This document shows, one piece after another, positions 5,108 through 62,034 of a stretch of DNA of 64,000 nucleotides. Positions within the stretch are counted from its first letter, which is position 1. Every line of letters starts with the position of its first letter. The translations under genes were made by a program, and so were the position numbers. The notes beneath the pieces were generated by a model. That model was not told the DNA's origin. It did no database searches and was given only the letters and a program-made list of their open reading frames with translations. The DNA comes from Candidatus Spechtbacteria bacterium (GTDB lineage Bacteria; Patescibacteriota; Minisyncoccia; Spechtbacterales; JACPHP01): contig JACPHP010000003.1 of NCBI GenBank assembly GCA_016188605.1, positions 16,400-80,399 on the forward strand, written 5' to 3'.

Positions 5108-6578
5108 TCAATAGCGTAAATGCTTTGCCCGCGCCCTCATGATCTCCAAAGCGCGCTGCGACAATATTGCCTTGACCCCGAGAAGCCACATCTAGAAATT
5201 CTTTGATAGCGGTGAAAGAACCGGTCGGCGATTTGGTCTTTGGATCACGTATCGTCCCATCACCATCCACGCATACAAGCGAACTGGCAGCTCGCCCCAT
5301 AAACGGATCGTAGTCCGAATAATTAGGGCCGATATGCCCCACTTCAAAATATCCCATAATATCGGTAACTAACGCCAGTCTTGCAATTGCTTCGCTTAGA
5401 ATGGCTGGATTCTTATCTTCCTCTTCTTGTTTTTCGCCATCGCTTAAAATAAACACGAATTTATTCCATTCAATGCCGGAATATTCCTTTTCCAGAATAT
5501 TTAATGCCATGTTAAGGCCACTGGAAATAATTGTCCCGCCGTTCGCAAAGCGATGGAAAAATTCCCATTCCGCTTTTTCGCCCGCATGGCGCTTGGCTTC
5601 TCTATCAAACGTAATAAAAACCAAATCGACGCGATCGTGTTCCATGCGAATTGCGCGAAGAAGATGCATGCAGAATACGCGAATAAGATTTAAGATTTCT
5701 TCTTTTCTCGTGCTATGTGAAGCGTCTCTCACAAAAATCACCACGGCATTGCTTTTATATTCCTCTCTGGATTCATGACGAATATAGCGCAGGTCTTCTT
5801 CGCTAAAATCATCGTCCCCATCGCCAATGCGCTCCATTCTTTTTTCAGATGTCTTGCGTTTGTGCAGCTGTGCTTGCGGACCGCGCATTCTCACGCCATA
5901 GGGACGACCTTTCGTACGAACTCGCAAGGCGCCTAAATTTGTTGTGCGCAAAAGAGGAAGATGGAATTGCTCAGCTATCGCATCAAGCAGTTGCTCAATC
6001 CGCACATTTTCCTCAAAAGCAACGCCTTCAGGATTTACACCCGCCCCCTGCGCCCCGTCAGTGAATTCTGGATCCATTTCATCATCGGGCCAGTGCGGAA
6101 AATCCATTTTCTCTGATTCTTGACCGGCTTCTGTAATAGGCACGCGTCCGAGTTCTTCTCCTCTACGAGCCGTCTTACTCTGGCCCACCCCAGAGCTCTG
6201 CTCGCCAAAACGTGAAGGCTTCTTTTTATTGCTGCTCGGACTTTGTGGCATCTCGCCTCGTTCATCGTTTCCGCCAGCAAATTCGCCGCTACCTTGTACC
6301 TGCTCTTGAGACTCCATAACCAAATCACTATACTCTTCTGCTTCATAACTCCACTCGTCGCCCGCATGATCCACGAACAACAAGCGCGATTCAGGAAGCG
6401 CAGGAACCTTGAGGGATATAATCCCGCCAGTCAAAATCCTGGTCAGCCCCACTTCATTTATTTCCATAAGCCTTGATGCGTTAGCGAATATACCGACCAA
6501 CGCACGCGCTCGATGATCTTCTCTTTCATATGCTAACGGGTCTGGAGATTGCGCAATTGATATAACGCGCAAAGCCAT
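5067..6578 (-). CDS. YeaH-like DUF444/vWA protein (paralog 2)
   Basis: 503 aa. VVIFVRDASHST, FANGGTIISSGL and FVFILSDGE blocks match the YeaH vWA region. Confidence 0.75.
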   Translation of the reverse strand: MALRVISIAQSPDPLAYEREDHRARALVGIFANASRLMEINEVGLTRILTGGIISLKVPALPESRLLFVDHAGDEWSYEAEEYSDLVMESQEQVQGSGEFAGGNDERGEMPQSPSSNKKKPSRFGEQSSGVGQSKTARRGEELGRVPITEAGQESEKMDFPHWPDDEMDPEFTDGAQGAGVNPEGVAFEENVRIEQLLDAIAEQFHLPLLRTTNLGALRVRTKGRPYGVRMRGPQAQLHKRKTSEKRMERIGDGDDDFSEEDLRYIRHESREEYKSNAVVIFVRDASHSTRKEEILNLIRVFCMHLLRAIRMEHDRVDLVFITFDREAKRHAGEKAEWEFFHRFANGGTIISSGLNMALNILEKEYSGIEWNKFVFILSDGEKQEEEDKNPAILSEAIARLALVTDIMGYFEVGHIGPNYSDYDPFMGRAASSLVCVDGDGTIRDPKTKSPTGSFTAIKEFLDVASRGQGNIVAARFGDHEGAGKAFTLLIEFCEKRRSGNEQ

Positions 6579-22855: not shown

Positions 22856-22860
22856 ATTTG

Positions 22861-23046
22861 TGCCGAGGGGGGGAGTTGCCCACAAATAAATTTCCTAACG
22901 GAAATTTTTCGCGGGCCGCTCCTCGCGGCGCTAGCCTTCCGCTCTAAGCGGAAACTAGCGCATCGCTGCGGCCTTCAACTCCCGACGCACGCAAAGCAGT
23001 TTGCGTGCTCCCTCGGCACACTAATAAATTATCCAAATTGTATATG
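22861..23046 (-). other. tRNA-linked structured element, copy A (3' of tRNA-Leu UAG)
   Basis: Starts with the tRNA acceptor 5' strand (gccgagg-gagc) and ends with a copy of the tRNA's T-stem 3' strand plus acceptor 3' strand (gcaactccccccctcggca). Contains hairpin gcacgcaaa-CUGC-tttgcgtgc and GGGAGTTGAAGG. Confidence 0.5.
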
Positions 23047-28642: not shown

Positions 28643-31600
28643 TTACACTACCAGCGCAGATGCCACCTTATCCCCACTTTCAAGCCTCATAATGCGCACG
28701 CCTTGCGTAACACGACCGAGATGTGGAATATTCTTCAGACCAACACGAATGACATTGCCGCGCTCGGAAACAACTATTAATTCGTCCTCTTCTTCCTTAA
28801 GTATTTGCGCGCTAACAAGCGCGCCTGTTTTTGCAGTAATATTTGCCGCTTTAATGCCAAACCCGCCTCTATGCTGAACCTTAAATGAACCAATAGCAGT
28901 TCGCTTGCCGTATCCATTCTCCATGATAACAAGAATGTCTTGCTTCTTATCGCTCGCGCCAATCATGCCCATGCCTATTATTTCGTCGTTTTGCTTTACG
29001 TGCAAACCATGTACTCCCCCCGCGGCGCGACCCATCGAACGAATATCAGATTCTTTAAAACGAATACTCTGACCCTGTTTTGTTACCAGCATAATATCGT
29101 CTTTGCCTGTGGAGATTGCCACCCACTGCAAGATATCATTACCCTTCAAATGCAAGGCAATGAGTCCGTTGCGACGAACATTCTGGAAATCTTCGATCTC
29201 TGTCTTTTTGATTATACCACCACGCGTAACCATAACCAAAAATTTTGCTTCTTTAGGATTACGGTCAAGTGGGATAACGGCAGTTACGGTTTCGTTGGCA
29301 GTCAAATCCAAAAAGTTAACTAGCGCTTTGCCTCGCGCAATGCGCGTGGATCGCGGTATTTCATATGCCAGCGTTTGGAATACGCGACCCGTGGAAGTGA
29401 AAAACAAAATCCTGTCGTGCGTTGACGCGGACAAGAAATGCTCCACTAAATCTTCGCCCTTACGTTCAATGCCAAGAATACCCTTGCCGCCGCGATGCTG
29501 CTGCTTATAAACCGTTGGCTGTACGCGCTTAATGTAGCCGTCTTTAGTGATGGTGATAATAGTTTCCTCTTTTGGAATTAAATCCTCTTCTTTGAATTCT
29601 CCAAGAGCCGCGGCATGGACTTTCGTTTTGCGCGTCCCGCCGTAAAGCGTTTTAAGATCACTAAGCTCTTCTTTGATTTTTACCCACATGCGCTTTGGCT
29701 CGTCGAGAAGCAACGTCCATTCCGCGATAAAGCGCTTTTTCTCCTTCAATTCTTCTTCAATCTTTTTGCGCTCAAGATTAGCCAGGTTCTGCAAACGCAT
29801 ATCCAAAATCGCGCCGGCCTGAATGTCGGTAAAATCAAATTTCTTTTTCAAATTGTTATGCGCGTCGGCGCGGTCTTGCGACGCGCGGATAGTTTTAATA
29901 ACCTCGTCAATGTGGTCAAGCGCTTTTTTCAAGCCCTCCAAGATATGCGCCCTCTCTTTAGCGCGCGCGATATCAAATTCCGTGCGCCTGCGCACAACTT
30001 CATGCTTATGCGCAAGATAATGCTCGAGAACCTCTTTCAACGAAAGCACTCTCGGCTCGATACCATTAACAAGCGCCAGCATGTTGAGGTGGAATGTCCT
30101 TTGCAGTTCAGTGAATTTGTATAAGCTGTTTAGAATTTTTTGCGGATGCGCGTCGCGCTTCAGCTCAATAATAACGCTCATACCGCGCTGGTCTGATTCA
30201 TCGCGAATATCACGAATACCTTCGATGCGGCCGTCCTGCACAAGGTTTGCCATTGTTTCAATGAGAGTTGCCTTGTTTACTTGGTACGGAAGCTCTGTAA
30301 TTTCAATATAAGAACCTTTTACGTCATCGCGTTCGTTTTCATCAAAAATCTGCGCCTCGCCGCGCATTAAAATCGGCCCCTTGCCTTGGCCATATGCCTC
30401 CATAATCGCCTTCTTTCCATATATAGTGCTTCCGGTTGGGAAATCAGGACCCTGAATAAACTGAAAAATATCCTCCAGCGTCGCTTTAGGATGATTGATA
30501 AGATGAATAAGCGCGTCCACCACTTCATTAAGATTATGCGGCGGAATGTTCGTCGCCATACCAACTGCAATACCCATTGTGCCGTTAAGCAAGAGCTGGG
30601 GAATTGCGGAGGGCAAAACTTTCGGCTCCTTGCGAGTGCCGTCGTAGTTATCCATCCAGTCAACTGTGTCTTTATCAATATCGCGCAGCATTTCTACGGC
30701 AATCTTGCTCATACGCGCTTCGGTGTTGTGATTGATAAAACCATTTGCCACGAATGAATGGCAATCACTTTCTACTTTTATAGAATAAACCTTCTCTATA
30801 CCGCCGTCCTCAATTTTTACTATAGGATCAAAAAGATAATGATTATCCAAAAGTTGCGAAAAAAGATTGACAATGCTCGTTTCCACGCGATGCTCAACCG
30901 CTGTCACAACGCGCTCATAATTTCTTCCCATTTCCGTGTAACGATCGAAATTATGTTTCAATGCAAATTCACGCACATTGTACAAAACTGAATTGCTTAA
31001 ATTAGCACGAACATAGTCAGATAAAAACGGTACTGTGTCGCTCGCGGTTTGTTCTTTGAAGAGTCGCTCGATGGCTACGGTTAGTTTACTTTTTTTGCGC
31101 TCCGAAATAAATCCAATTTCTTTTGCAAAAACAGAATAATTACTCAGCCCTCGCAAATAAAGTTTGTGTGTCGCGCGATATTTGTCAAAACGCTTGGTTG
31201 CCGCAATGCCAAATCGCAAGAGTAAAATTTGTAATTGGCTAAGCAATTGTTCACTTTTTGATATCGCGCTTAATTCAGTCATTGTAGCGCTAAAGGTAAT
31301 AGTACCATCGCCCTCGAAATATGCGCGTATAAAAGAAGACGCAACTGCTTTTGACGAACGGAAAATAATATGGGGTATTGTTCTAGCGCCAGATTTTGCG
31401 GTAACTAGCCCTATATTGCGTAAAAAAGCAATTACATGCTGTGAATGCACTTCAAAAGTTTTATATGGCTTCGTGCCGTATGAATTGGGGCGGCGCTCGA
31501 AGGCATGCAACCGGCAGTCAGGAAAAACCCTCCTCCAACGCTCTGAAAATTCAGCCATCCATTCATCGTCCGTATTGCAAAACTCTAATTCTTTCTCTTT

Positions 31601-32512
31601 CAATGTACCTTCGGCAAGGAATGAACCGAGAATAAAAGCAAGATCTTCATCAAGCGCTTTGGGCAACTTTTTTTTCTGAATGCGCGCGTTGATTTGTTTC
31701 GGCCAATATGGAACAAGTGAAATATTTTTCACAGGCCATAATACATCCGCCGTACGGTCTATCACGGCAATGTCACCCACGCGAATATCTTGCAAAAGTT
31801 TCCAGCTAAATTCTGGTATCCCAGTAAGAACATTTTTCGTCCACGTAAGAATAGGATGATTGTAGGAACCTCTAATTGACGTTCCTCTCTGTGTAGTAAT
31901 AGATAAAATGGGATGCTCTCCACTATCAAACCATTTTTTTACAGTATTTACTGTGTGGTCTTTAGAAAGGACTGAAATATCAACGGCTTCCCTTCCATCT
32001 GAAGAAACATCTTTAATGGGAATAAGGCCATTAGAAGTAACTACTAATGTGTCGCCTGTCACGCAATAACGCATAGCAGCCGCGCTATCGCCATCTATGG
32101 ACCCAAAGTTTCCTTGCCCATCAACCAGCGTGTAACGCATGCTAAAATCCTGCGCCAAGCGCACCATAGAGTCATACACCGCCATATCGCCGTGAGGATG
32201 ATACTTTCCCAGCACATCTCCAACCACCGCCGCTGATTTGCGATACCGCGCGCCCGAAGTCAAGCCCATTTCGTGCATGGTATATAAAATACGGCGATGC
32301 ACCGGCTTTAAACCATCGCGGACATCAGGCAAGGCGCGCGCCACGATAACGGACATGGCGTAATCCAAATACGACTCCTGAACTTCGTCAGTAATTTCTC
32401 TTTTTTGAATATTTCCAATTGGATTTTCTGGGTCAGGCATGATAAAAACTTGAATACTGAATTGTGAATGCTGAATTGTGAATGACTGACCGAAGCATGA
32501 TTCATGATTCAC
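28643..32512 (-). CDS. gyrA: DNA gyrase subunit A, interrupted by an intein
   Basis: [24 protein letters not shown] and GKYHPHGD motifs; AAMRY|C...HN|TEARMS splice junctions. Start is probably MPDPENP at 32440; the first 24 codons lie in repeat sequence. Confidence 0.9.
30725..32065 (-). mobile_element. GyrA intein (447 aa) with LAGLIDADG homing-endonuclease domain
   Basis: Starts CVTGDTLVV and ends [12 protein letters not shown] before the Thr+1. LAGLIDADG-like motifs [10 protein letters not shown] and [11 protein letters not shown]. Inserted at the conserved Tyr-Thr site of the GyrA active-site region. Confidence 0.8.
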
Positions 32513-38301: not shown

Positions 38302-38338
38302 TTGGCGGTTTCCTGGTTCGAGTCCAGGCGCGCCCACA
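38302..38338 (+). pseudogene. tRNA 3'-half fragment (T-arm plus acceptor; duplicate of the tRNA-Ile T-arm)
   Basis: ggtttcctggttcgagtccagg-cgcgccc-a with no matching 5' half nearby. Confidence 0.5.
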
Positions 38339-38439: not shown

Positions 38440-38490
38440 GGCGTTTAGCTCAGTGGTAGAGGTTGAAAGCAAACTGCTTTGCTTTCAACG
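38440..38490 (+). other. 5' part of a split tRNA-like gene (acceptor plus D-arm) followed by a conserved CUGC-capped hairpin
   Basis: gggcgtt-t-a-gctc-agtggta-gagg, then gttgaaagcaaa-CTGC-tttgctttcaac. The 7-nt acceptor strand is exactly complementary to the 3' fragment at 38734-38740. Confidence 0.5.
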
Positions 38491-43956: not shown

Positions 43957-44080
43957 GTGCCGGGAGAGGGAGTTGCCCTAAAGGGTCCGGGGCTGACGGT
44001 CGCCTAAAACGACATCGTCAGCCCTTCAACTCCCTATGCACGCAAAGCAGTTTGCGTGCGCTCCCGTCACTAAAAATTGG
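43957..44080 (-). other. tRNA-linked structured element, copy B (3' of tRNA-Leu UAA)
   Basis: Minus sense: gacgggagc-gcacgcaaaCUGCtttgcgtgc-ata-GGGAGTTGAAGG-[hairpin gctgacgatgtcg...cgaccgtcagc]-gcaactccctctcccggca. The 3' end repeats the tRNA's T-stem 3' strand and acceptor 3' strand. Confidence 0.5.
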
Positions 44081-47425: not shown

Positions 47426-47868
47426 TCAATACGACGGGCGAAAAAATCGTTTACGCAATACCTCTAATTTAACCAGAAAATGACGAAAAATTCAAGGGGC
47501 TATTGATTTTATCAATACCTTACTACAAAGACATAAGATGTAACTACTCACGCCCTTTTTGCCTCCCGCCATTGCGATCCCCGCCAGAGGCGGGCAGGTG
47601 CCCAGGGCGGAGTGGCAATCCCGTTAAACTTAAACGAATACAAAATTGCTTCGCTACTGCTCGCAATGACGTTATGGGAAAGGATGAGCGATTGCATTAC
47701 CGCATTATTTACCTATATTTGCTTACGTGTTATCTTAAATTACAAACGGTGGGGTGCCTTGGGACCAAGGTCCATCAGCCCTGGGCTGAGAGTGAATTAC
47801 TTTATGTATTATGTGTATATATTAAAAATAGAATAAAATATCTTTTGCAAAAAGATTGAATAGCTTAC

Positions 47869-47955
47869 GGTGGGGTGCCTGAGTGGTTGAAGGGGACGGT
47901 CTCGAACACCGTTAGAGGAGAAATCCTCTCGTGGGTTCAAATCCCACCCCCACCG
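47869..47955 (+). tRNA. tRNA-Ser(CGA)
   Basis: ggtgggg / ccccacc acceptor; anticodon stem acggt/accgt with loop ctCGAac; long variable arm tagaggagaaatcctctcg; T-arm gtggg-ttcaaat-cccac. Confidence 0.75.
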
Positions 47956-48087
47956 CAACGAACGAAGTGAGTGAGAATGGGGAGCGACACAACTGCTTGT
48001 GTCGCGTGTGGGATTTGAAGGGTTTACGATGTCTCGCTAGACGAGACCGTAAACCCAGGGCACATTAATCCTCCCACCCCCACCGCA
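47956..48087 (+). other. tRNA-linked structured element, copy D (3' of tRNA-Ser CGA)
   Basis: gaatggggagc-gacacaaCUGCttgtgtc-gcgt-GTGGGATTTGAAGGG-[hairpin tttacgatgtctcg...cgagaccgtaaa]-...-tcccacccccaccgca. The 3' end repeats the tRNA-Ser T-stem 3' strand plus acceptor. Confidence 0.5.
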
Positions 48088-48114
48088 AAGTTAGAAGAAG
48101 AAAGGAGTATTGTA

Positions 48115-49260: not shown

Positions 49261-51474
49261 CTACAATGTATTCCTCCTCAACAACATCGCGTTGAACGCT
49301 ACAATCACAGTACTTAATGACATTAGCACCGCGGCAACCGCCGGCTGCAATACTATTCCCCAAGGCGCGAGAATACCCGCGGCAAGAGGAAGCGCTACTA
49401 CGTTATACCCCGCCGCCCAAAAAAGATTTTGCACCATCTTGCTATACGTCAGACGCGAAAGCGTGATAATTTTTGCAATGTCGCGCGGATCATTCTTTAC
49501 AAGAATTATGCCAGCAGATTCAATGGCTACATTTGTGCCAGCTCCAATCGCTACACCCAAATCAGCCTGTACTAAAGCTGGCGCGTCATTGATGCCATCG
49601 CCCACCATCGCCACTTTAACATTTTTAGCTTGCAGTATCTTTACTTTTGCTGCCTTATCTTGCGGCAGTACTCTCGCGAAATATTCATCAATGCCAAGGT
49701 CATGCGCCACCCAACTCGCTACATCCTCCGAATCTCCTGTGAGCATGCCGACCTTCACCCCCATTTGCCTTAGAGAAGCAATTGCTTCGCGCGACTCATC
49801 GCGAATAAGATCGGCAAGCGCGAACGCGCCTATAACATTATTGTCGCGAAGAATATAAATAATCGTTTTTCCCTTTTTACTTTCCCGTTCAATTTCTTTT
49901 TCCATACTTGATGGAACTGATGCCCCATCTAAAATCGCGGCGCCGCCGACTAAAATCTTACGACCATCAATAATACCGCTAACGCCCCTACCTGGAACGC
50001 GCGAAAAATCTTTAACCTCAAAGAAACTAAGATTATCTTGCTTGGCTTTATTTACTAATGCTCGAGAAATATAGTGCTCGGAATGAGCATCAACAGACGC
50101 GGCGAGCTGTAAAACATTTTTCTCATTTACTTGCTCGCCTGCCCCGAGTCCCTCGACATTGCTCGGGACAGGCTCTGTCGAAGTGGTCGAGGGGGTCGAA
50201 TCCGCCCAAATATTTGTAACTCCGTACTCGCCTTTTGTCAGTGTTCCTGTTTTATCAAATAAAACAATATTGATATTACGCGCCATCTCAAGCGCCAAAC
50301 GCTGGCGCACTAAAAATCCATTGCGCGCCGCCATTGTTGTAGAAATGGACGCAACTAGCGGAACCGCGAGCCCAAGCGCGTGCGGACAGGCAATCACCAG
50401 TACCGCTACCAACCGTTCAAAGGCCATGCTTACATCGCCAGCAAGAACAATCCATGCCAAAAACGCCACGCCTCCCGCGCCAATCGCGACAATTGTTAAA
50501 TAATACGCCGCCTTGTCGGAAAGAATCTGCAAGCGCGATTTTGACGCTTGCGCTTCCCGCACGAGACGCATCACGCCGGCAAAAAAAGTGTGTTCGCCAA
50601 CACTTGCCACGCTAAACTTTAGCGCGCCATCGCCGTTAATCGTTCCTGCTATAACTTGCGCGCCGACAATTTTAGACACGGGCATGGACTCACCTGTAAT
50701 CATTGATTCATCAACATGCGAGGAACCATCAATAACCCTTCCATCAGCCGGAATTCTTCCGCCCGGCCGCACCACTACAACATCGCTCTCACGAAGTTCG
50801 GACAAAGGAATTGTGGTTGTATTGCCACCACGCACAACCTCCGCCGTATCTGGCAAAAGTTTGGAAAGCTCTTTTAGCGCTCCCTGCGCGCCTTGCACCG
50901 CGCGCATTTCAATCCAGTGGCCAAGCAGCATGATAGTGATAAGTGTGGTCAGCTCCCAAAAAAGAGTATGGCTGCTGCCAATTAGCACTGAATATACGCT
51001 GTAAAAATACGCCGAGGAAATAGCAAGTGCAATCAAAGTCATCATGCCTGGCATGCGCGCGTGAATCTCCTGTACGGCACTGCGAATGAACACCCAGCCG
51101 CCATAGAAAAAAACTATGGAGCCAAAGATAAGTGGTAGAAATTCAACCCCGAAAAACATTGGCGGTTTTATCGGTGAAAATTGTTGAAAAACATCAGAGT
51201 ATAAAATGACGGGAATAGTAAGCGCGAGGCTAATCCAAAACTTTTTTAGAAAACTGTCTGTCTTGCCGTGCCCCGTAGCATGCCCTGCATTGCTAGCGGG
51301 GTGGCCAGCGTGACGGTCATGAACCTTCCCTTGAGGTTTAACCTCAAGGGATTTTCTTGCCCCGAGCTTGTCGAGGGGTTCTTCCACGGCAAAAAGCTGC
51401 ATGCCACATTCAGGGCACATACCGGCGTAATCCTGACGTATTTCAGGATGCATTGGACAAATATATACGGTCAC
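49261..51474 (-). CDS. Heavy-metal translocating P1B-type ATPase with N-terminal CxxC...CxxC metal-binding segment
   Basis: CPMHPE...CPECGM; CPH transmembrane motif (ACPHALGLA); DKTGTLT phosphorylation site; GDGINDAP hinge. Confidence 0.85.
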
Positions 51475-51754
51475 ATTATTTATATTAATTGATGGTGAAT
51501 ATTCTAGCCAAGCTATTCCCTTAGTTTGGCGCAGTACCTAAAATTTTTACAATATAAACATCGGCAGCGCCGACAACACGAATAGTATCACCATCATTGA
51601 TAAGAGACGCGGTCGCCGCGCGTGATGAAGGCGCAAACAATGCAAATCCCGCAATGGCTGAAAAAATAACAAAATTTTTATGATGTTTTTGAGATGCATT
51701 GATAAACAAGCTTATAGGATGGCCTTCAGTGCTAATTATTAATTACCCGGCGAT

Positions 51755-52132
51755 TCACTTGCCTATGAATCCCTTGCAAATATTACTGCCGCAATTACAC
51801 TTAAAGCCCATAGGCTGTCCATTGCTATAATCAGACGTGATCTCTTCCCCTTTTTTAATATCTTTGATGGCAATGTCGCTATAATTTTTTACGCGTGTAT
51901 TAGGCTCGCAAGAATGGTTCACGTATCTCTCCGGAGATTGCATGAAGAGATACTTTTTACCCATTTGATAAAGGTAATGCCTATCGTCAGAACGTAATGT
52001 ATCTCCTTCTGATTTCGTTAAAATTTTAGGATGCCATTCTAAAACAACTTCGCCCTTCTTAAAGTCTCTATCAGCAAATATGCCCTTTCCGCTTATTTTT
52101 GATTTCTTAATTACGACACCGCCCATAATCAC
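51755..52132 (-). CDS. SET-domain protein (putative protein lysine methyltransferase)
   Basis: 125 aa. NHSCEPN motif and GEEIT.DY post-SET-like Cys cluster (CNCGSNIC). Confidence 0.6.
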   Translation of the reverse strand: MIMGGVVIKKSKISGKGIFADRDFKKGEVVLEWHPKILTKSEGDTLRSDDRHYLYQMGKKYLFMQSPERYVNHSCEPNTRVKNYSDIAIKDIKKGEEITSDYSNGQPMGFKCNCGSNICKGFIGK

Positions 52133-52154
52133 TTAAATTATTTACTGTTTATTT

Positions 52155-52229
52155 GGTGGACCCAAGGGGATTCGAACCCCTCACCCCTTCCATGCCATGG
52201 AAGTGCTCTACCAAATGAGCTATGGGCCC
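52155..52229 (-). tRNA. tRNA-Ala(GGC) with encoded CCA
   Basis: Reverse complement: gggccca-ta-gctc-atttggtag-agc, anticodon stem cttcc/ggaag with loop atGGCat, T-arm ggggttcgaatcccc. G3:U70 pair present. Confidence 0.75.
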
Positions 52230-52261
52230 ATATATTAATAACACGATGTACTTCACAATTG

Positions 52262-52333
52262 TGCCCCCATGGGGAATTGAACCTCAATTTAGGGCTTAGG
52301 AGTCCCTCGTTCTATCCGTTGAACTATGGGGGC
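52262..52333 (-). tRNA. tRNA-Arg(CCU)
   Basis: Reverse complement: gccccca-ta-gttc-aacggat-agaac, anticodon loop ctCCTaa (one A:G mismatch closing the stem), T-arm tgagg-ttcaatt-cccca. Confidence 0.65.
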
Positions 52334-52960
52334 TTAAACATTAGTGATCCTTTCTACTAATGCGTGCCTTAAGGAATTAAATAGCTTGAGAATATGATTA
52401 CCCTTTATAATTCTTACGCGACACATCCCGTATTTAAGCTTACCAGTTTTCTTGCCCTTAAGAACATCGACGGAGGTGATTTGTGATTTTGAAAGCCTTG
52501 TTACATTTGTCCAAAATTTTATCGCCTCTTCTTGGTTGATGTCCTCATAAATACGAAGTGACATACTTAGATTATTCCGCATAATCCCCAATTCATATAA
52601 ACATTCAATAAAAACTTTTAATAATTCAGGGTCACTATTAATCAAACTAGAATCCCTTTTTGCTCCTTCTGCCCAATATAGAGCTGCCGCAACTAGAATC
52701 TTCTCTTTTTGACTTATCTCACCTAAAATATTCTTGACATCATCATCTGCTTTTTGAATTGCCTTTAATTGTCTAAAAACACTAGATTTTCTTCTATTCT
52801 CCCAATATTCAAAAAACTCCGACTTAATACTGACTCCTTGAATATACTTGAAAACTGTACCATTTGAATGGCTAGTGATTCTTCTGATCTCCGGAAGACT
52901 ATGTCCACTCTCTCGCAAAGAAACAATTTTTGCAATTTGATCCTTGGATAGACCTTTCAT
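52334..52960 (-). CDS. HTH plus LAGLIDADG-like (single-motif) homing-endonuclease-like protein
   Basis: 208 aa. N-terminal resolvase-type HTH (LSKDQIAKIVSLRESGHSLPEIRRIT). LYWAEGAKRD resembles the LAEG-variant LAGLIDADG motif seen in the gyrA intein ([13 protein letters not shown]). Abuts tRNA-Arg. Confidence 0.5.
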   Translation of the reverse strand: MKGLSKDQIAKIVSLRESGHSLPEIRRITSHSNGTVFKYIQGVSIKSEFFEYWENRRKSSVFRQLKAIQKADDDVKNILGEISQKEKILVAAALYWAEGAKRDSSLINSDPELLKVFIECLYELGIMRNNLSMSLRIYEDINQEEAIKFWTNVTRLSKSQITSVDVLKGKKTGKLKYGMCRVRIIKGNHILKLFNSLRHALVERITNV

Positions 52961-53002
52961 TATTCAATTGTATCATGAATGCAGAACGATTCCTAGAATA
53001 GG

Positions 53003-53029
53003 ATTGCTCTATCCGTTGAACTATGGAGG
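53003..53029 (-). pseudogene. 5' fragment of a tRNA-Arg-like gene (acceptor plus D-arm only)
   Basis: Reverse complement gcctccat-a-gttc-aacggat-agagc differs by 2 nt from the 5' end of tRNA-Arg(CCU) at 52309-52333. No anticodon or T-arm follows. Confidence 0.5.
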
Positions 53030-53160
53030 CTATTTGCTCATATAAACACCGGCTGGTTGCGAGGACTATAATACAACAATCTTATGTAACTTACAATGAT
53101 CTTTACGGTAATTGCTCGCTGATAATGAGATATGTCACGCTATGTTGCATCAAAAACGAA

Positions 53161-54600
53161 TTATTCAACAAAACTATCCGCAAATACGAAACTGGTATCT
53201 GGCTGATAATACGCGAGAGTCATCAAATTTTTTCGCCAACCAATAATAATTGGATCAATGAATCTCCACATTGCCCTCACCTCTTCCGAAGACACAAAAA
53301 GAGTTTGATCGCCGGCAATGCCATCAAGCAGCAATTTTTTATATTCCTCAATGTATTGGGTTCTTTTCTCCGCGTCTCTAAAACGAAAGTCCAGCGTTCT
53401 TTCCTCCAACTCCATGTCAAAACCCTCCTTTTTTGACCCGAAATGAATTGTCACGCCCTCTATTGGCTCAATGCCTATAGTCAATTTATTTTTATAATGC
53501 TGCTCTTTCTTGGGGCAAAGGCAAGGATTTGGATGGCGCAATGTAATTTCAATATCCTTACGCTGATCTTGCAATCGCTTGCCGCTTTCCAAAATAAATG
53601 GCACGCCTTTCCATTTTGGATGAGATAAAAACGCGCGGATCTTAAAATACGTTTCTGTTTGAGAATCTGGCGCCACACCAGCAATGTCGCGATAACCCGC
53701 ATATTGCGCTCGAAAAGCAGAAGTACGGACATCTTCTTCGGTTGGCAGTACTAATGTTTTTAAAATATCTGCGCGATTTTTTCTGATAGCGTCTACACTA
53801 AATTCCCTGGGATGCTCCATGGTTACCAATGCCAACATCTGTAAAAGATGGTTCTGACCCACATCTTGAAGCGCCCCCACGCTGTCATAAAAATTCCCCC
53901 TATCCTCCACGCCGATTTTTTCCATCAAACGAATATGAACCCTTTCGATATTTTGACGCCCCCAGTTTGTTTCAAACAGATTATTTGAAAAACGGAATGC
54001 CAGAATGTTCTGCAACATTTCTTTGGCAAGATAATGATCAGTGCGATAAATTTGAACTTCTTTGAAAAGAGAACTCAAAAGTTCTTCCAATTGTTCTGAT
54101 GTTTCCAGATTTTTGCCGAACGGTTTTTCCACCAGAATGCGCGTCCATCCTTCCTCCGGACTGCATGGTTTTGTCAATTCCGAAGCCGCGAGATTTTTGA
54201 ATATGGCCTCATAGAGATTGGGTGGGACTGCCAGATAGAACAGCTTATTTGCGCAGATCCCCCAATCATCGTCTATTTTACGCAAATGGTTCTCTAGGTC
54301 TTCAAAATCGGCTAGATTCTCAAAAACACCCGAATGATAAGAAAAGAGTTTGCAGAATGCCTTGCGTGTTTTTATATTGGCATCTTTGTATTGAGCAGAT
54401 GTTTCAAAAAGATATTTCTCAAAATCTTTTGGAGAAATATCTTGGCGCGAGAATCCGACTATTTTAAACGTGGTCGGGAGTTGGTTGTTTATAAACAAGC
54501 TGAAGAGAGCAGGCATAATCTTCTTTTTCACAAGGTCGCCTGTGATGCCGAAAATGACAATTATTGTTGGAATATTCTTTGTTTGCATTTTGTCTTCCAT
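53161..54600 (-). CDS. zwf: Glucose-6-phosphate 1-dehydrogenase
   Basis: FGITGDLVKKKIMPAL NADP motif; EKPFG; RTDHYLAKE (RIDHYLGKE-type) motif. Confidence 0.85.
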   Translation of the reverse strand: MEDKMQTKNIPTIIVIFGITGDLVKKKIMPALFSLFINNQLPTTFKIVGFSRQDISPKDFEKYLFETSAQYKDANIKTRKAFCKLFSYHSGVFENLADFEDLENHLRKIDDDWGICANKLFYLAVPPNLYEAIFKNLAASELTKPCSPEEGWTRILVEKPFGKNLETSEQLEELLSSLFKEVQIYRTDHYLAKEMLQNILAFRFSNNLFETNWGRQNIERVHIRLMEKIGVEDRGNFYDSVGALQDVGQNHLLQMLALVTMEHPREFSVDAIRKNRADILKTLVLPTEEDVRTSAFRAQYAGYRDIAGVAPDSQTETYFKIRAFLSHPKWKGVPFILESGKRLQDQRKDIEITLRHPNPCLCPKKEQHYKNKLTIGIEPIEGVTIHFGSKKEGFDMELEERTLDFRFRDAEKRTQYIEEYKKLLLDGIAGDQTLFVSSEEVRAMWRFIDPIIIGWRKNLMTLAYYQPDTSFVFADSFVE

Positions 54601-57666: not shown

Positions 57667-60600
57667 TCACACCTCGCACTGCCCGTACCCGCAGGACTCG
57701 TTTATACAGGCGTTACAGCCATTGTCCATTTTAAGTGTCTGCTCTTGGCAGGCTGGGCAAGTGTAAAGCTGCATCTGCGCCGAAATCAAGGATGCGTGCG
57801 GCTTTGCCTCTACTTGCTCGCGTACGTCTGGCTCGTTTTTTGCAAACGTTAACCCCGTTGGAGTAAATTGAATCTGCGCCTCCATGTCAGGCACCGTGCT
57901 ATCCATAATGGCATCTTGTTCTTCCTCTTCCGCGACGCTTTCCGCGATCCTTATCTCATTCTCTAGTACGGCCGCGGTAGATACAGCGGCCGTCACTACT
58001 AGCTGTTCAACTTTTTCCCGCGGCGTAACATCCATCTTTTCTGCCCCCTCTACGATATGTAAATTTTTAACTTCATCTGCTTTCATCCAGCCATAATGCA
58101 AAGCATGAAATACGGTCGTCAATCGCCCACTAGGCAAAACAATCACATCATCACCTTTCACTTCTTTGCCATCCCACTTGTAAACATTATTCTTGTATTC
58201 CTCAATCGCGGATTTTTCTCCAACAGTGCTTAAAATCGCAAAACGAGATCCTTCACGATAGATAGTAATTCCTTTTAATCCCGTGCGCCACGCGTCTAGA
58301 TAAATATTGGAAATAACTTCAGGCTCAATGTCTTCAGGCAAGTTCACGGTAGAAGAAATGCTATGGTCTATATACTGCTGGCACACACCCTGAATTTCCA
58401 CGCGCTTGTCTGGCGCGATGAAATGAGCAGTGCGGAAAAAATGCGTTGGCAAAATACGCTTGAGCTCGTCCATATCTCCCGCATGCTCAACCCGATCTTG
58501 CAAGTTATTCTGCTCAATATACGCAGATACGGTAGAATGGAATACCTTAAACATTTGATTGTGAAAACTCTCCGACCGGCGCGTATAGTACAAAGAAAAT
58601 ATTGGCTCCACGCCAGAGCTAACGCCAATAAAATTCTTCGCGCCAAACTGATAGCTCAACACGATATTGGAAATGCTGCCGGTGGGCGCTATGGAAAGCA
58701 GGGCAATATTGCGCAGGCCTTTTTGCCTCACTATTTCGCGCGTTTCCTCGTTCAAACTCTTTTGGAAAAACTCGCCTCGAGAATATGTTTCATAATCAAA
58801 TATCGGAGAAGACCCTTTTTCCTGCGCGATGTCTGCTGAAGCGCGGTACACCGCGTTTGCAATAAAACTCATCACTCGTTCAATTACCGCGATGCCCTCT
58901 TCGCTGTCGTAACCCATGCCAAGCTCGTTTAACATGTCGGCAATTCCCATCACGCCGATGCCGAGACGCCTCGTTTCCTTAGCCGCGCGTCGCTGTTTCT
59001 CTAAAGGATTTAATGTTTCGTTCCATGTAACTACGTTATCTAGAAAACGAGTTGCCACGGCCGCGGTTTTGGCCATGCCATCCCAATCAATTGAAGCACC
59101 TTCTACATATGGGTTTCGTACAAATCGCGACAAGTTAATGGATCCCAAGTTGCAAGCGCCGCCGTCCTCCAATGGAATCTCGCCGCAATTATGAACGACA
59201 ATTCCATTAGCGACAAAAGAATGGGTTTGTGGCTCGGTCAAATCATAAACCGGCTCTTCTCCACTTGCTTGTATGCTTTCTATCGCAGCCTCAAATCGTT
59301 CTTTATAAGGTCCGCGCACAAAAGAAGCAGTGCTGGCATTTATGCGATCTTGTTTTTGCTTTGACAAAAATCCGATCTCTTTGGCATACACATAAAGACT
59401 AGCGCTGCTTATCATCAAATCATGTTGTGCCTTGCAAAAATATTCCTTTCTGCCTCCATGGCCATCGGGAAGCGGTCGTGTCATAGCTGGTCTCCTATTC
59501 TGATAGATAACACTGTAAATACCAAAACTTAAAAGCATAAGTTGTGTTTTGTGTAGCGCATCAATATCCACACTCGTAAGGCGCACAGAAAATCCTTTCT
59601 TGGCCGTACCCTGGATAGAGCCGTCGGCAGTAAAAAGCGCGCGGAGAAATCCTCGCTGGCATTCTCTCCCCATTTGCAATACATTCACAGGAAAACGCCC
59701 CTCGCACACTCCATAGCGAACCGCAAGATTGGTAATTCCCTGCGAACGAAGGTTTATACTTGCCCCAGAATGTATAGGTGTCAGTTCTCGTCCCGTAGAA
59801 CAAGTAACTGCTTCGCGAAGAGCAGGTAAGCATTCTTGCTTATCATCGCCATAAAAATATAGTATGCTTCTACCGTCATTTTTTGCATTGTAATGGCCAT
59901 CACCCGCAAGCCATCCAAGAGTAAGTCCTTCCTCGTAAGTCCCGTTTCTTCCATACATACCTTCTAATTTACCAACGACAACCTTCTCGCCTTCCTGTAA
60001 TTCTGCCAGTGTCTTCCACCCACTTGGTGTTTGAATACGATGATCTGCGGTCGCCTTCAAAACAAACCCTTCGCGAGTAGTTAAAGTATATGTAGGTTTA
60101 ATTCCAGTTTGCCATACGCGCGCCGCCTCCCCGACCCGACCTCCGTCCAACAGCAGTAATGGTTGTTTGCCTACAAGTTCGCTGATAGGTAAAAGGCCGT
60201 CCACAGTGGAAACAAGCGTGTCGCCTGTAACGCACGGATTTGTGCTTGCGATAGGCCTGCCCGCGTAGTTGGACGGCGACATGCTTGACATGCGCGTCCA
60301 AAATAGCAGCCCCGGCTCTGCCGTGCGGTAATTCCCTTCCACAAACGCGTTCCACAACTCGCGCGCTTTTACCAAACGCTTTACCTCGCCCGTTTGCGCG
60401 GAGTTAAAATACAGCATAAAATCACCGGAGTATTTTATCGCAAAATCACTATCGCTGCGCGGACTTGCTACCAAATAATCGCCAAACATATCGCGGCGGC
60501 CGGCATCACCAAGAATATCATGCGTCAAAGAACCGCAACCCTGCTCTGCCAAAAAAGCATTGAGTTCGGAAATACTGGTGAATGTGCCACGAAGCGTGTA

Positions 60601-62034
60601 GCGCTCAATTGGCTTTGACGGAATGCCGTAGGAATAATTTACCTCACCTCCTTGCGAGATACCAAGCGAACTTACTGACTTATCTTTCTCATAAACCAAA
60701 ATTGCCTCGCCCCCGTGCTCGTTTTGCTCTTCTACCGCGCGCATAAACTCGTCGTTCATTTTTAAGCTGATATTAGCGGAGCGCACCTGCGTGTTTTCTC
60801 GCACCTGGCGTTCAATTTCCGTCATCTGATCGACGGAGAACTTGCCGCTCATCTTGCACTGTTCAAGTATCTGCCTTGTAACCCAGTTAGGATTCTTTTT
60901 TGCTTTCACAAACAGCGGACTGTCAGGATGCTTAATGTCCAACGTCAACATCAAAGCGCCGCGGCGCCCAGACTGGCCGATTAAACCAGTCGTAAGAGAA
61001 TACAACTCCATAAAGGACACGGCGCCTGTGGATTCATCAGCCGCGTTATGCACCACGGACCCTGCCGGACGCAAGGTAGTGATATCAACCCCAATTCCAC
61101 CGCCGTATGAATAAGTACGCGCGCATTCATAAGCCGCTTTGTAAATTGACTCCAGGTTGTCTTCCTCAATCACTGATACAAAACAATTGGCAAGCGTTTT
61201 AAGGCGATACAAGTCGCCAGAGCCTGCCAGTACGCGGCCGCCTGGCATAAAATATCCCTCATACAAAATCTTGTAAAAATCTTCAGCGTGCACCTGCTGG
61301 CGTTTTTCATCCGGCTCAACCGATGCCATGAAAGCGGCGAGGCGCGCAAAAACGTCTTCCGGCCTCTTCTCTAGGCGATTACCCTCCAATGTTTTTAGAT
61401 AATATTTTTTCTGGTAGATTGTTGTAGCAAGCTCGTTATTGCCAAGATAGTTTCCCTCGGGATGCGTAGCCAGCTTGCCGGTTTTCTGCATTGTTTTCAA
61501 ATAGAAAAGGATATTTTTGTATGCTTCAATGCGATCATAGCCAAGGAGCGATGCCAGTTTGCTTTTGTGAGCGAACATGTGCAGCAGAGCGCTTTTTTCT
61601 TTATCGTCACCCTTTGATGCTTCGTTTGCAGCACTGCGCAATTCCGCTCGTTTTGCGCGATACAAAATATATGCTTTCGCTGTTGTGGCATGGCCTTCGT
61701 CAATTAACACTTTTTCTACGATATCCTGAATTTCCTCAACGGTGGGGAATTTTTTTTCTGACTCTTCGATTCTTCGGCATACCACATCGCTCAAACGCTG
61801 TGCTTCATTTTTGTCGTTACCGCCGACTGCCCGCGCGGCACGAAAAATTGCGTTCACCACTTTTTCCTGCTCAAAAGGCACCATTCGCCCGTCGCGCTTT
61901 GCTACTTTTTCAATATTCCAATGTTTTTGCGTGCGTGGCGCGGGCACAGGAGTGCCGTGTACAAGATTACTATGAGCTGATTGTGGTGTATAGCTGGGCA
62001 TAACTTTAAAAATTTTAATTTCTAAAATATTCAA
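57667..62034 (-). CDS. nrdJ: Adenosylcobalamin-dependent (class II) ribonucleotide reductase with N-terminal ATP-cone, interrupted by an intein
   Basis: ATP-cone (KRDGRMVPFEQEKVVNAI), catalytic-core blocks, C-terminal Cys-rich tail; intein junctions STNP|CVTGDT...VVHN|CGEIP. Confidence 0.8.
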   Translation of the reverse strand: MNILEIKIFKVMPSYTPQSAHSNLVHGTPVPAPRTQKHWNIEKVAKRDGRMVPFEQEKVVNAIFRAARAVGGNDKNEAQRLSDVVCRRIEESEKKFPTVEEIQDIVEKVLIDEGHATTAKAYILYRAKRAELRSAANEASKGDDKEKSALLHMFAHKSKLASLLGYDRIEAYKNILFYLKTMQKTGKLATHPEGNYLGNNELATTIYQKKYYLKTLEGNRLEKRPEDVFARLAAFMASVEPDEKRQQVHAEDFYKILYEGYFMPGGRVLAGSGDLYRLKTLANCFVSVIEEDNLESIYKAAYECARTYSYGGGIGVDITTLRPAGSVVHNAADESTGAVSFMELYSLTTGLIGQSGRRGALMLTLDIKHPDSPLFVKAKKNPNWVTRQILEQCKMSGKFSVDQMTEIERQVRENTQVRSANISLKMNDEFMRAVEEQNEHGGEAILVYEKDKSVSSLGISQGGEVNYSYGIPSKPIERYTLRGTFTSISELNAFLAEQGCGSLTHDILGDAGRRDMFGDYLVASPRSDSDFAIKYSGDFMLYFNSAQTGEVKRLVKARELWNAFVEGNYRTAEPGLLFWTRMSSMSPSNYAGRPIASTNPCVTGDTLVSTVDGLLPISELVGKQPLLLLDGGRVGEAARVWQTGIKPTYTLTTREGFVLKATADHRIQTPSGWKTLAELQEGEKVVVGKLEGMYGRNGTYEEGLTLGWLAGDGHYNAKNDGRSILYFYGDDKQECLPALREAVTCSTGRELTPIHSGASINLRSQGITNLAVRYGVCEGRFPVNVLQMGRECQRGFLRALFTADGSIQGTAKKGFSVRLTSVDIDALHKTQLMLLSFGIYSVIYQNRRPAMTRPLPDGHGGRKEYFCKAQHDLMISSASLYVYAKEIGFLSKQKQDRINASTASFVRGPYKERFEAAIESIQASGEEPVYDLTEPQTHSFVANGIVVHNCGEIPLEDGGACNLGSINLSRFVRNPYVEGASIDWDGMAKTAAVATRFLDNVVTWNETLNPLEKQRRAAKETRRLGIGVMGIADMLNELGMGYDSEEGIAVIERVMSFIANAVYRASADIAQEKGSSPIFDYETYSRGEFFQKSLNEETREIVRQKGLRNIALLSIAPTGSISNIVLSYQFGAKNFIGVSSGVEPIFSLYYTRRSESFHNQMFKVFHSTVSAYIEQNNLQDRVEHAGDMDELKRILPTHFFRTAHFIAPDKRVEIQGVCQQYIDHSISSTVNLPEDIEPEVISNIYLDAWRTGLKGITIYREGSRFAILSTVGEKSAIEEYKNNVYKWDGKEVKGDDVIVLPSGRLTTVFHALHYGWMKADEVKNLHIVEGAEKMDVTPREKVEQLVVTAAVSTAAVLENEIRIAESVAEEEEQDAIMDSTVPDMEAQIQFTPTGLTFAKNEPDVREQVEAKPHASLISAQMQLYTCPACQEQTLKMDNGCNACINESCGYGQCEV
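59188..60234 (-). mobile_element. RNR intein (349 aa) with LAGLIDADG endonuclease domain
   Basis: Cys1 at residue 601, terminal HN before Cys+1 at residue 950. LGWLAGDGHY and LRALFTADGSI motifs. Confidence 0.75.

Follow-up and report, generated by a model that had tools for sequence, protein, structure and literature searches.

Why should the first half of a tRNA gene stand upstream of a small protein gene that itself runs up to a complete copy of the same tRNA gene? This question is raised by a locus in a 64,000-nucleotide (nt) stretch of a Candidatus Spechtbacteria genome (contig JACPHP010000003.1 of assembly GCA_016188605.1), the whole of which is referred to here as the window. On the minus strand of the window, a tRNA-like fragment beginning at 53030 is followed in turn by an open reading frame (ORF) of 208 amino acids (aa), a tRNA-Arg(CCT) gene, a 31-nt spacer and a tRNA-Ala(GGC) gene. 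A preliminary description of the window had read this arrangement as an insertion into the tRNA-Arg(CCU) gene which left part of the gene behind while a functional copy persisted, and comparison with related loci bears this out. We consider it rather probable that the inserted piece, about 0.66 kb long, is a free-standing homing cassette made up of a promoter and a leaderless gene for a helix-turn-helix (HTH) and nuclease-like protein, which sits inside the former resident tRNA-Arg(CCU) gene.

A tRNA half-gene relic with a fixed breakpoint

The fragment upstream of the ORF was already known to be a near copy of the 5' part of tRNA-Arg(CCU), and a repeat search confirms this, with 23 of 24 positions identical between 53008-53031 and 52311-52334. 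The exact core of the repeat is 19 nt long, whereas no exact match longer than 12 nt arose in 300 shuffles of 1.5-kb window stretches compared with the window tRNAs; the fragment is therefore not a chance resemblance. It had been described as 27 nt long and starting at 53029. Its first nucleotide in fact lies at 53030, and it extends over 38 nt to 52993, from the acceptor strand and D arm to the 5' side of the anticodon stem and on into the loop as far as the end of the anticodon (GCCTCCATAGTTCAACGGATAGAGCAATCCTATTCTAG). The anticodon arm of this relic is degenerate (…GAGC A ATCCT AT TCT AG, the anticodon having decayed to TCT) and equals the preserved relic arm of related loci with three transitions. 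Homology to the tRNA ends at TCTA (52994), after position 36/37 and inside the anticodon loop. The earlier suggestion that the 5' region of the tRNA is the target does not hold, as the break is in the anticodon loop and the whole 5' half is duplicated.

Scans of one genome per species, covering 185,579 species, gave 151 stretches encoding a relative of the ORF, of which 80 were fetched. Where tRNA-like sequence is kept upstream of these ORFs it spans the anticodon, and the preserved relics read …GGATAGAGC A GTCCC GT CCT (A/T)G. The relic ends with …GTCCT(A/T)G directly before the -35 box of the ORF promoter, which is a fixed breakpoint. The relic anticodon arm (of the TCCCGTCCTAAGGGA type) is nearly constant across unrelated loci, as A[G/A]TCCCGTCCT. 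An nhmmer profile built from 13 clear relics scores the window relic at E=1.1e-10 and finds significant relics in 20 of 81 loci, always on the same strand as the ORF and 45-110 nt before it. The core YCCTWG is present 25-75 nt upstream of the start codon in 39 of the 81 loci, where shuffling predicts 2.1, and its distance peaks sharply at 38 nt. Depending on the method, a relic is thus visible in 20-39 of 81 loci. Near-perfect relics are found in L006, L007, L012, L043, L052, L063, L073 and the window, and few recognisable relic bases are left in L067 and L080. This range of decay, from almost intact to unrecognisable, indicates insertions of different ages.

Two loci, L053 and L054, keep the old 3' half instead, as a reverse-complemented relic (…GGTTCGATTC…) which starts from A38 and lies 40-80 nt upstream of the ORF. 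Since it begins at A38 and is reversed, the split point is the same and the cassette has the opposite orientation, which matches empty loci where the tRNA is reversed relative to the neighbouring gene. The old 3' half was also sought downstream of the ORF-linked tRNAs, and none was found in 80 loci. To judge from these sequences, the old gene is always split at nt 36-38, and it is the half lying upstream of the ORF that survives.

The ORF is tied closely to the intact tRNA. In all 80 fetched loci tRNA-Arg(CCT) is the next gene on the same strand, with a gap between ORF stop and tRNA of -102 to +62 nt (median -10); 47 of the 80 ORFs overlap the tRNA and 21 stop 0-5 nt short of it. Longer homologues end in peptides such as AAVVQRIEQDTPNV or SSTDRTEES, which are translated tRNA-Arg sequence, and the called ORF therefore reads into the tRNA. 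In the window the TAA stop (52336-52334) abuts nt 1 of the tRNA at 52333, leaving a gap of 0 nt, and the relic lies about 33 nt from the ORF. The window ORF promoter consists of a -35 box TAGGAA (52995-52990), a 17-nt spacer and the extended -10 box TGATACAAT (52975-52967), which ends only 6 nt before the ATG and so implies a leaderless mRNA. This promoter was not picked up by the promoter consensus scan. Among the 80 loci, 47 have a σ70-type promoter (at least 9 of 12 positions) ending 3-12 nt, most often 6 nt, before the start codon, compared to 1.4 expected with random anchors, and in most related loci the -35 box (TTGACA) begins right after the CCTAG of the relic. It is very likely that the leaderless mRNA continues from the ORF into the tRNA, and the window tRNA-Arg(CCU) is probably co-transcribed with the ORF.

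Empty sites and the exchanged anticodon stem

The arm kept in the relics is the arm of the common, ORF-less allele of tRNA-Arg(CCU). A metagenome scan with the relic D arm and anticodon arm as its pattern (GGATAGARCARTCCCGTCCT) matched at least 120 loci. Of the matches listed, 113 are intact ORF-less tRNA-Arg(CCU) genes which continue with …CCTAAGGGA…, and in four more this gene is truncated where the contig stops; L197 and L148, also among the matches listed, are other rearrangements, and L102 holds a relic, promoter and ORF start at a contig end. Stretches of the common-arm gene read …CAGTCCCGTCCTAAGGGA… and …GGATAGAGCAGTCCCGTCCTAAGGGAAAG…. An arm-agnostic control scan of viral contigs gave 33 arms among 122 tRNAs from other bacteria rather than Patescibacteria, and both the common arm and a homologue of the ORF were absent from this set.

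Uninterrupted alleles, for which the preliminary description had proposed a search, do exist at orthologous sites. Proteins flanking the occupied loci recur beside ORF-less tRNAs with 75-86% aa identity, and a glutaredoxin-like neighbour gene is common to 71 of the loci listed, 20 of them occupied and 51 empty. One synteny group joins the empty loci L126, L169, L133 and L082 with the occupied loci L003, L004, L005 and L007 through the same upstream genes and tRNA promoter. When L126, L169 and L133 are set against L003, L004 and L005, the divergent upstream gene, the tRNA promoter (TTGTCAGCAA…TGCTAAAAT) and the 5' half of the tRNA align column by column, and collinearity stops right after CCTA. 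The same promoter is thus conserved before the intact tRNAs of the empty loci and before the relics of the occupied ones. By analogy, a promoter-like sequence further upstream in the window may be the relic promoter of the old tRNA-Arg gene, although this assignment is weak because it lies 38 nt upstream of the relic.

The cassette is therefore present or absent at one defined site among related genomes. The occupied locus L067 is one such case: both of its flanks align with the empty loci L139, L122, L094 and L154, and the sole large difference is about 0.7 kb of promoter and ORF before the tRNA. Its flanks are 79% identical to empty loci over about 2 kb, compared to 71% with the closest occupied locus. 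This nesting among empty genomes, together with the implausibility of a reversion to the common-arm tRNA, argues for an independent gain.

The tRNAs that follow the ORF differ from the common allele in a particular way. The intact window tRNA has the anticodon stem AGGGA/GCCCT (nt 27-43, 52307-52291); in the common allele this stem reads (A/G)TCCC/GGGA(N). The common arm is found in only one of 81 ORF-linked tRNAs (L047), so that 80 of the occupied alleles lack the sequence of the empty site; 79 of the 81 differ from it at 4-9 of 15 positions. There are 34 different arms among the 81 tRNAs, and the stem is always re-paired. In 20 syntenic occupied loci compared with the nearest empty-site tRNA, the mean difference is 11% outside the stem and 77% within it, and between the tRNAs of L067 and L174 two of 56 positions differ outside the stem and seven of 10 in the stem. 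The target gene is thus chimeric, divergent beside the cut site and local elsewhere. As the divergence is confined to the anticodon stem, the functional tRNA is essentially the local tRNA with an exchanged stem, and the intact window tRNA-Arg(CCU) is, as far as its sequence can tell, the functional replacement copy. The earlier idea that the old tRNA was regenerated from a copied 5' end has to be given up: the relic arm finds no complement in the 3' stem strand of the downstream intact tRNA, which has a self-consistent stem of its own.

Two further origins for the intact tRNA were considered and rejected. Import of a whole foreign tRNA does not fit L067 and other loci, where the T arm and acceptor match the local empty-site tRNAs. 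An element carrying nt 1-37 and reusing the old 3' half does not fit either, as the 27-31 strand of the relic does not pair with nt 39-43 of the intact gene.

The features of the locus are collected in Table 1. The tRNA-Ala(GGC) gene, which follows tRNA-Arg(CCU) at several sites both empty and occupied, marks the right-hand edge of the disturbed region.

Table 1. Features of the tRNA-Arg(CCU) locus, in window coordinates.
Feature	Position	Strand	Basis
Possible relic promoter of the old tRNA-Arg gene	53068..53096	-	TTGTAA-17-TATTAT, consensus scan
Relic 5' half of the former tRNA-Arg(CCU) gene	52993..53030	-	Repeat search and relic-profile nhmmer
ORF promoter: weak -35, 17-nt spacer, extended -10	52967..52995	-	Read from sequence
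208-aa ORF, putative site-specific endonuclease	52334..52960	-	N-terminal HTH and C-terminal domain
Intact tRNA-Arg(CCU)	52261..52333	-	ARAGORN; Rfam tRNA model, 58.3 bits
tRNA-Ala(GGC), downstream neighbour	52154..52229	-	ARAGORN, Rfam

Upstream of the relic, at 53161-54600 (-), lies a stand-alone glucose-6-phosphate dehydrogenase of 479 aa, whose closest relatives (57-64% identical) are mostly fusions of about 780-830 aa with 6-phosphogluconate dehydrogenase domains. Elsewhere in the window, GyrA and ribonucleotide reductase (28643-32512 (-) and 57667-62034 (-)) each carry a LAGLIDADG_3 intein. Counting the tRNA cassette, this makes three homing-type elements in 64 kb.

Other tRNA genes of the window are disturbed as well. 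Six of its 13 tRNA genes have an exact copy of 14-20 nt of their own sequence 50-190 nt away, compared to a chance maximum of 12 nt. These copies, at 22859-22878 (-), 38310-38328 (+), 38445-38461 (+), 43957-43975 (-), 47746-47759 (+) and 48072-48088 (+) and at the locus studied here, concern the 3' end of Leu(TAG), the T arm of Ile, the D arm of Val(TAC), the 3' end of Leu(TAA), both ends of Ser(CGA), and Arg(CCT); only at Arg(CCT) does an ORF lie between copy and gene. The 5' duplicate of tRNA-Ser, which the preliminary description had put at 11 nt, is an exact match of 14 nt (47746-47759 and 47867-47880), and the 3' end is duplicated too, over 17 nt, downstream of the gene (48072-48088). Between tRNA-Ser(CGA) and this second copy, at 47957-48071 (+), are about 115 nt with two GC-rich hairpins (GCGACACAACTGCTTGTGTCGC; GGGTTTACG…CGTAAACCC). 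Similar GC-rich hairpin inserts are found in tRNA-Arg genes of L197 (D loop) and L148 (T arm) and in the relic of L071, and the insert may be a small element targeting tRNA genes and resembling a miniature inverted-repeat transposable element. The tRNA genes of the window genome seem to have been struck repeatedly by small insertions or replacements.

The rearranged locus L197 is of a different kind. At about 5400-5640 of this metagenome contig a common-arm tRNA-Arg(CCU) gene is interrupted exactly after CCTA by a complete tRNA-Arg(CCU) with a variant stem, which has a spacer of 20 nt before it and one of 21 nt behind it. The spacers form an inverted repeat (…GCCTGAC / GTCAGGC…), both old halves are kept and there is no ORF. 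This could be a cassette that has lost its ORF, an independent type of insertion, or an intron-like case in which a helix of the spacers rejoins the outer halves.

Some of the metagenome-assembled genomes (MAGs) with the cassette, among L001-L080, are labelled 'uncultured Gammaproteobacteria', 'Bdellovibrionales', 'Bathyarchaeia' or 'Nanoarchaeota'. The tRNA sets and neighbouring genes of the oddly labelled MAGs resemble those of Patescibacteria loci, so that either the labels were probably assigned wrongly by an automatic procedure or the contigs were mis-binned.

The protein and its relatives

The identical protein in the database, from a Candidatus Spechtbacteria MAG (Patescibacteria, or candidate phyla radiation (CPR)), is annotated as a hypothetical protein. 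A search of a 90% cluster database finds 278 relatives at E<=0.001, nearly all of about 207-225 aa. The protein consists of a three-helix HTH (residues ~6-40), a long linker helix (47-78) and a C-terminal domain (78-208), and AlphaFold2 models it with a mean predicted local distance difference test (pLDDT) score of 93 for the whole protein and 93.9 for residues 78-208 (predicted TM score 0.84). An alignment of 47 sequences has 20 invariant positions (R16, G19, E24, S60, Y95, W96, E98, G99, N108, D110, R136, W150, G169, G173, L175, G178, C180, R181, R183 and K192) and the motifs LYWAEGxK, NSDP, RIYED and GKKxGKLKYGMCRVR.

The window ORF itself gives nothing above noise against Pfam, NCBIfam and PHROGs. 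A resolvase-type HTH had been recognised in it previously, and this is supported at the level of the family, where HTH_23, HTH_38 and HTH_7 each match 10-11 of 47 members; the window protein does not match the HTH families of Pfam at E<=0.01. A recombinase finds no support: none of the 57 family members searched showed a domain of the serine recombinase, tyrosine recombinase, DDE or HUH type. Domain searches of the window protein and 47 family members also found no Hint, intein or zinc-finger domain.

The preliminary description had further noted an LAEG variant of the LAGLIDADG motif and a similarity to the endonuclease of the gyrA intein. The motif is real: LYWAEGxK aligns with LYVAEGDK of I-DmoI domain 2 and with FLAEGT of the window gyrA intein, and E98-G99, a conserved acidic residue followed by glycine as in a LAGLIDADG-type helix, is invariant in the 47 sequences. 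The link to LAGLIDADG is a likeness at the level of the motif only, and the similarity to the intein is not sustained, with hhalign probabilities of 0.85% for the gyrA and 0.23% for the ribonucleotide reductase intein endonuclease domain. The sole coherent sequence match in the PDB is I-DmoI domain 2 (domain profile E=0.012, full profile E=0.047), which covers the LAGLIDADG helix, the next strand and the next helix, about 47 residues in all. The invariant E98-G99 closes the first helix and has the look expected of a LAGLIDADG catalytic residue, but a LAGLIDADG-like fold is an unconfirmed lead.

The C-terminal domain is without a Pfam model, yet is widespread. Its profile matches 3,057 representatives of a 50%-identity library at E<=0.001, or about 3,000 clusters, and 697 at 1e-10. 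Among these are proteins of 400-580 aa in which the domain occurs twice; HTH domains are present in all that were tested. On the L004 contig two family members stand at two different tRNA-Arg genes: the second, a 229-aa paralogue 25% identical to the window ORF (1619-2481), overlaps the start of tRNA-Arg(UCU) and has upstream of it what is left of the 5' half of a tRNA-Arg(UCU) gene whose stem is different. Seven more distant representatives were placed on their contigs. Four are directly 5' of tRNA-Arg(CCU), one (L325) is 52 nt 5' of tRNA-Val(UAC), and a 424-aa two-domain relative (L327, on a 2-Mb contig of GCA_000374305.1) is 102 nt 5' of tRNA-Gln(UUG); the contig of the remaining one is too short. 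No clear relics were seen at the six distant loci placed beside tRNAs. The genome of L327 is much larger than is typical of Patescibacteria. Each sub-family seems adapted to a tRNA of its own (Arg-CCU, Arg-UCU, Val-UAC or Gln-UUG). It is tempting, if still tentative and a little short of an even bet, to see here an undescribed superfamily of tRNA-gene-specific homing endonucleases that spreads in Patescibacteria, and occasionally in other bacteria, by stem replacement.

Proposed homing and its alternatives

If the cassette homes, its protein, probably as a homodimer, would recognise the anticodon stem-loop DNA of the common Patescibacteria allele. The proposed target, …CA[G/A]TCCC GTCCTAA GGGA…, is inherently a pseudo-palindrome, which would suit a homodimer, and the cut would be made between nt 36 and 38, inside the loop and immediately 3' of the anticodon. 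With an occupied allele as template, repair would then copy the ORF with the adjoining tRNA segment, whose re-paired stem is not recognised. The empty-site sequence would in this way be the recognition site, and the variant stems would be immune to cleavage. The old 5' half of the recipient would stay upstream as a scar, and in a donor this scar would probably serve as the left homology arm. The new tRNA would retain the local T arm and acceptor: recombination in the T-arm region would leave the rest of the tRNA local and the 3' half unduplicated. The ORF promoter would drive ORF and tRNA together, and the 5' end of the tRNA would be released at or inside the last codons of the ORF. Nuclease activity of the protein is deduced from this genetic pattern.

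Several observations weigh against the homing of such a cassette. The first group concerns the protein. Searches of the family in Pfam, NCBIfam and PHROG found no nuclease domain, and Pfam LAGLIDADG models (LAGLIDADG_1, _2, _3 or WhiA) matched none of 47 members (E<=0.01), the window protein (E<=1) or 10 distant relatives, though the same library detects LAGLIDADG_3 in the GyrA and ribonucleotide reductase inteins of the window. The modelled C-terminal topology is α-β-α-β-α-β-β-α, as against the canonical LAGLIDADG αββαββα. Foldseek searches of PDB and BFVD with full-length and domain models gave weak hits to IspF, YjgF and RusA-like structures (TM score 0.2-0.35), with no LAGLIDADG structure in the top 50 against PDB; an intein protein annotated 'Hom-end-associated Hint' was matched over 106 columns (TMq 0.45, root-mean-square deviation 2.3 Å), a statistically weak result (E=0.5). 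Comparison by hhalign with I-DmoI, using a sequence which agrees with the stretches of it shown in the search output, gave a probability of 54% over 47 columns, and 17% was obtained with a LAGLIDADG_3 alignment of 7 sequences, made by hand as the homologue search with the gyrA intein had given one homologue.

The second group concerns the loci. The ORFs of L053 and L054 are 86% identical while their linked stems differ (GCTCA/CGAGC and AGGGA/GCCCT), so the stem does not always travel with the ORF, and arms of the common type adjoin an ORF in L047, L324 and L328. The empty sites were found with a pattern requiring the common arm, and so represent common-arm ORF-less loci. For the window itself no empty site was found, the nearest zwf relative being only 64% identical, and the window flanks have no match of 300 nt or more with the empty loci. 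Across loci, ORF identity correlates with the identity of a host marker (r=0.51), and descent is therefore largely vertical within clades. Insertion in both orientations is awkward for a purely homology-driven process, and, taken with the ORF-less insertion of L197, leaves room for a mechanism of direct integration.

Such a mechanism is the best surviving alternative, though we think it unlikely. The ORF product would be an integrase- or transposase-like protein inserting the cassette into the anticodon loop by breakage and joining, without a homologous donor. Its N-terminal HTH is of the resolvase, IS630 or Tc1 type (HTH_7, HTH_23, HTH_38), and relics occur in both orientations relative to the cassette. 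In L197 a complete variant tRNA with short inverted repeats sits exactly after CCTA between the two old halves, and the left junction, CCT[A/T]G followed by TTGACA, is uniform across unrelated lineages. Set against this, the 57 members examined show none of the recombinase or transposase domains named above, and the ORF cassette has neither terminal inverted repeats nor target-site duplications. The missing old 3' half downstream in all 80 loci, and the T arm and acceptor shared by the new tRNA and the local empty-site tRNAs, fit recombination within the tRNA better than simple insertion.

Another explanation, which we regard as decidedly improbable, is that the protein is a domesticated and vertically inherited DNA- or RNA-binding factor, e.g. 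one that regulates tRNA-Arg(CCU) or helps to mature it. The relic would then date from one ancient rearrangement and be kept through its overlap with the promoter or an operator. The strongly conserved juxtaposition of ORF and tRNA, the conserved promoter architecture, the partial correlation with the host marker and a nuclease fold that is not proven are all compatible with this. Moreover, the best conserved part of the relic adjoins the -35 box and could be an operator for autoregulation, as is known for I-TevI. It is harder to reconcile with the patchy distribution of the family (151 matching stretches in 185,579 species), with L067 nested among empty-site relatives, and with relics that are nearly intact in some lineages and gone in others; a neutral relic of 38 nt could not have survived since a single ancient event, because the ORFs are now only 40% identical. 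A change from an occupied site back to an intact common-arm tRNA is implausible, and paralogues stand at other tRNAs with a relic of their own.

A degenerate former intron, of group I or of the archaeal tRNA type with a homing endonuclease gene, is very improbable and already largely refuted. In its favour are the L197 spacers, which could pair like intron ends, and the position of the break, since archaeal introns and the group I introns of bacterial tRNA genes are likewise found in the anticodon loop on the 3' side of the anticodon. Against it, the Rfam scan of 51000-54500 at E<=1 found two tRNAs only and no intron or ribozyme, about 33 nt between relic and ORF and 0 nt between ORF and tRNA leave no room for a ribozyme core between two exons, and a complete tRNA rather than a 3' exon follows the ORF, with no 3' half further downstream in 80 loci. 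The introns of tRNA genes have been reviewed elsewhere (PMC3984707).

Among known systems, the homing cassette favoured here comes closest to the WHO elements of Torulaspora and Lachancea, relatives of HO, which exchange the 3' end of FBA1 and leave pieces of that gene behind (Coughlan et al., 2020, PMC7282813). In both, an endonuclease gene (in our case a predicted one) lies between a full-length copy of the target and a target fragment, which acts as scar and homology arm; in the cassette this arrangement is seen in the window and in 20-39 of 81 loci. In both, the part of the target beside the element is divergent and resistant (presumably so in the cassette) and the rest is local, so that the target evolves as a chimera, and splicing of an intron or intein is not needed. 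The differences are that WHO elements target a protein-coding gene in eukaryotes rather than a bacterial tRNA gene, and that their proteins are intein-derived (Hint, LAGLIDADG and zinc finger), whereas the cassette protein combines an HTH with an unclassified domain and cleavage is predicted. The geometry of the cassette is mirrored, with the 5' part replaced and the element upstream. WHO elements also form tandem clusters by repeated homing; tandem ORF copies were sought in the cassette loci and none was found, the second homologue in L004 being the only one and standing at a different tRNA. The cassette would thus resemble the WHO elements in its mode of action without belonging to their family.

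Intronless homing is also known from the free-standing endonucleases SegB, SegF, SegG and MobE of T4-like phages (PMC2988022, PMC3984707). These share with the cassette, as proposed here, a free-standing endonuclease gene with its own promoter, placed between or beside conserved genes, and spread with flanking markers by double-strand-break repair, SegB doing so in a tRNA gene cluster. The phage enzymes differ in being of the GIY-YIG or HNH type, in acting during co-infection, in leaving no half-gene scar and in not being tied to a single tRNA species or to the anticodon loop. An intron-encoded homing endonuclease that targets a tRNA gene resembles the proposed cassette in its target, anticodon stem-loop DNA which is a natural pseudo-palindrome; there the tRNA is restored by self-splicing, whereas the cassette has no intron and a linked second tRNA copy. 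That enzyme has a PD-(D/E)XK fold. Integrase-borne islands and prophages likewise insert into tRNA genes, duplicate part of the tRNA and preserve a functional copy, but they carry a tyrosine or serine recombinase, usually duplicate the 3' end (att) and are kilobases long, while the cassette has no recombinase, leaves a 5' half and measures 0.66 kb.

Closer in host range are the single-domain LAGLIDADG endonucleases, e.g. I-ShaI, found in rRNA insertion sequences of the CPR in a study that does not mention tRNA (PMC11270868). They come from the same bacterial group, are small proteins that form homodimers, and target genes for structural RNAs. Unlike the cassette family, which has an HTH and matches none of these models, they match Pfam LAGLIDADG_1/2/3 and lie in rRNA introns or insertions. 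A search of the literature available to us found no description of a tRNA-Arg-linked endonuclease-like family or of tRNA half-gene relics in Patescibacteria.

If the homing of this cassette is confirmed, cellular bacteria would have their first known case of a homing element that resides in a tRNA gene without an intron, host function being kept through a resistant tRNA copy that is supplied or converted, and the cassette would be a bacterial counterpart of the yeast WHO/HO elements. Selfish nucleases would then drive rapid compensatory evolution of tRNA anticodon stems. The family would represent a new group of DNA-targeting proteins, with an HTH and a compact domain in single and tandem forms and with differing tRNA-gene specificities, and could serve as programmable nucleases. 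Homing would also explain the mis-annotated 'hypothetical protein / MerR regulator' genes that read into tRNA genes, as well as the unusual diversity of anticodon stems and the tRNA half-gene relics in Patescibacteria genomes. Homing endonucleases, which are known to invade rRNA genes of the CPR, would then be seen to invade tRNA genes as well.

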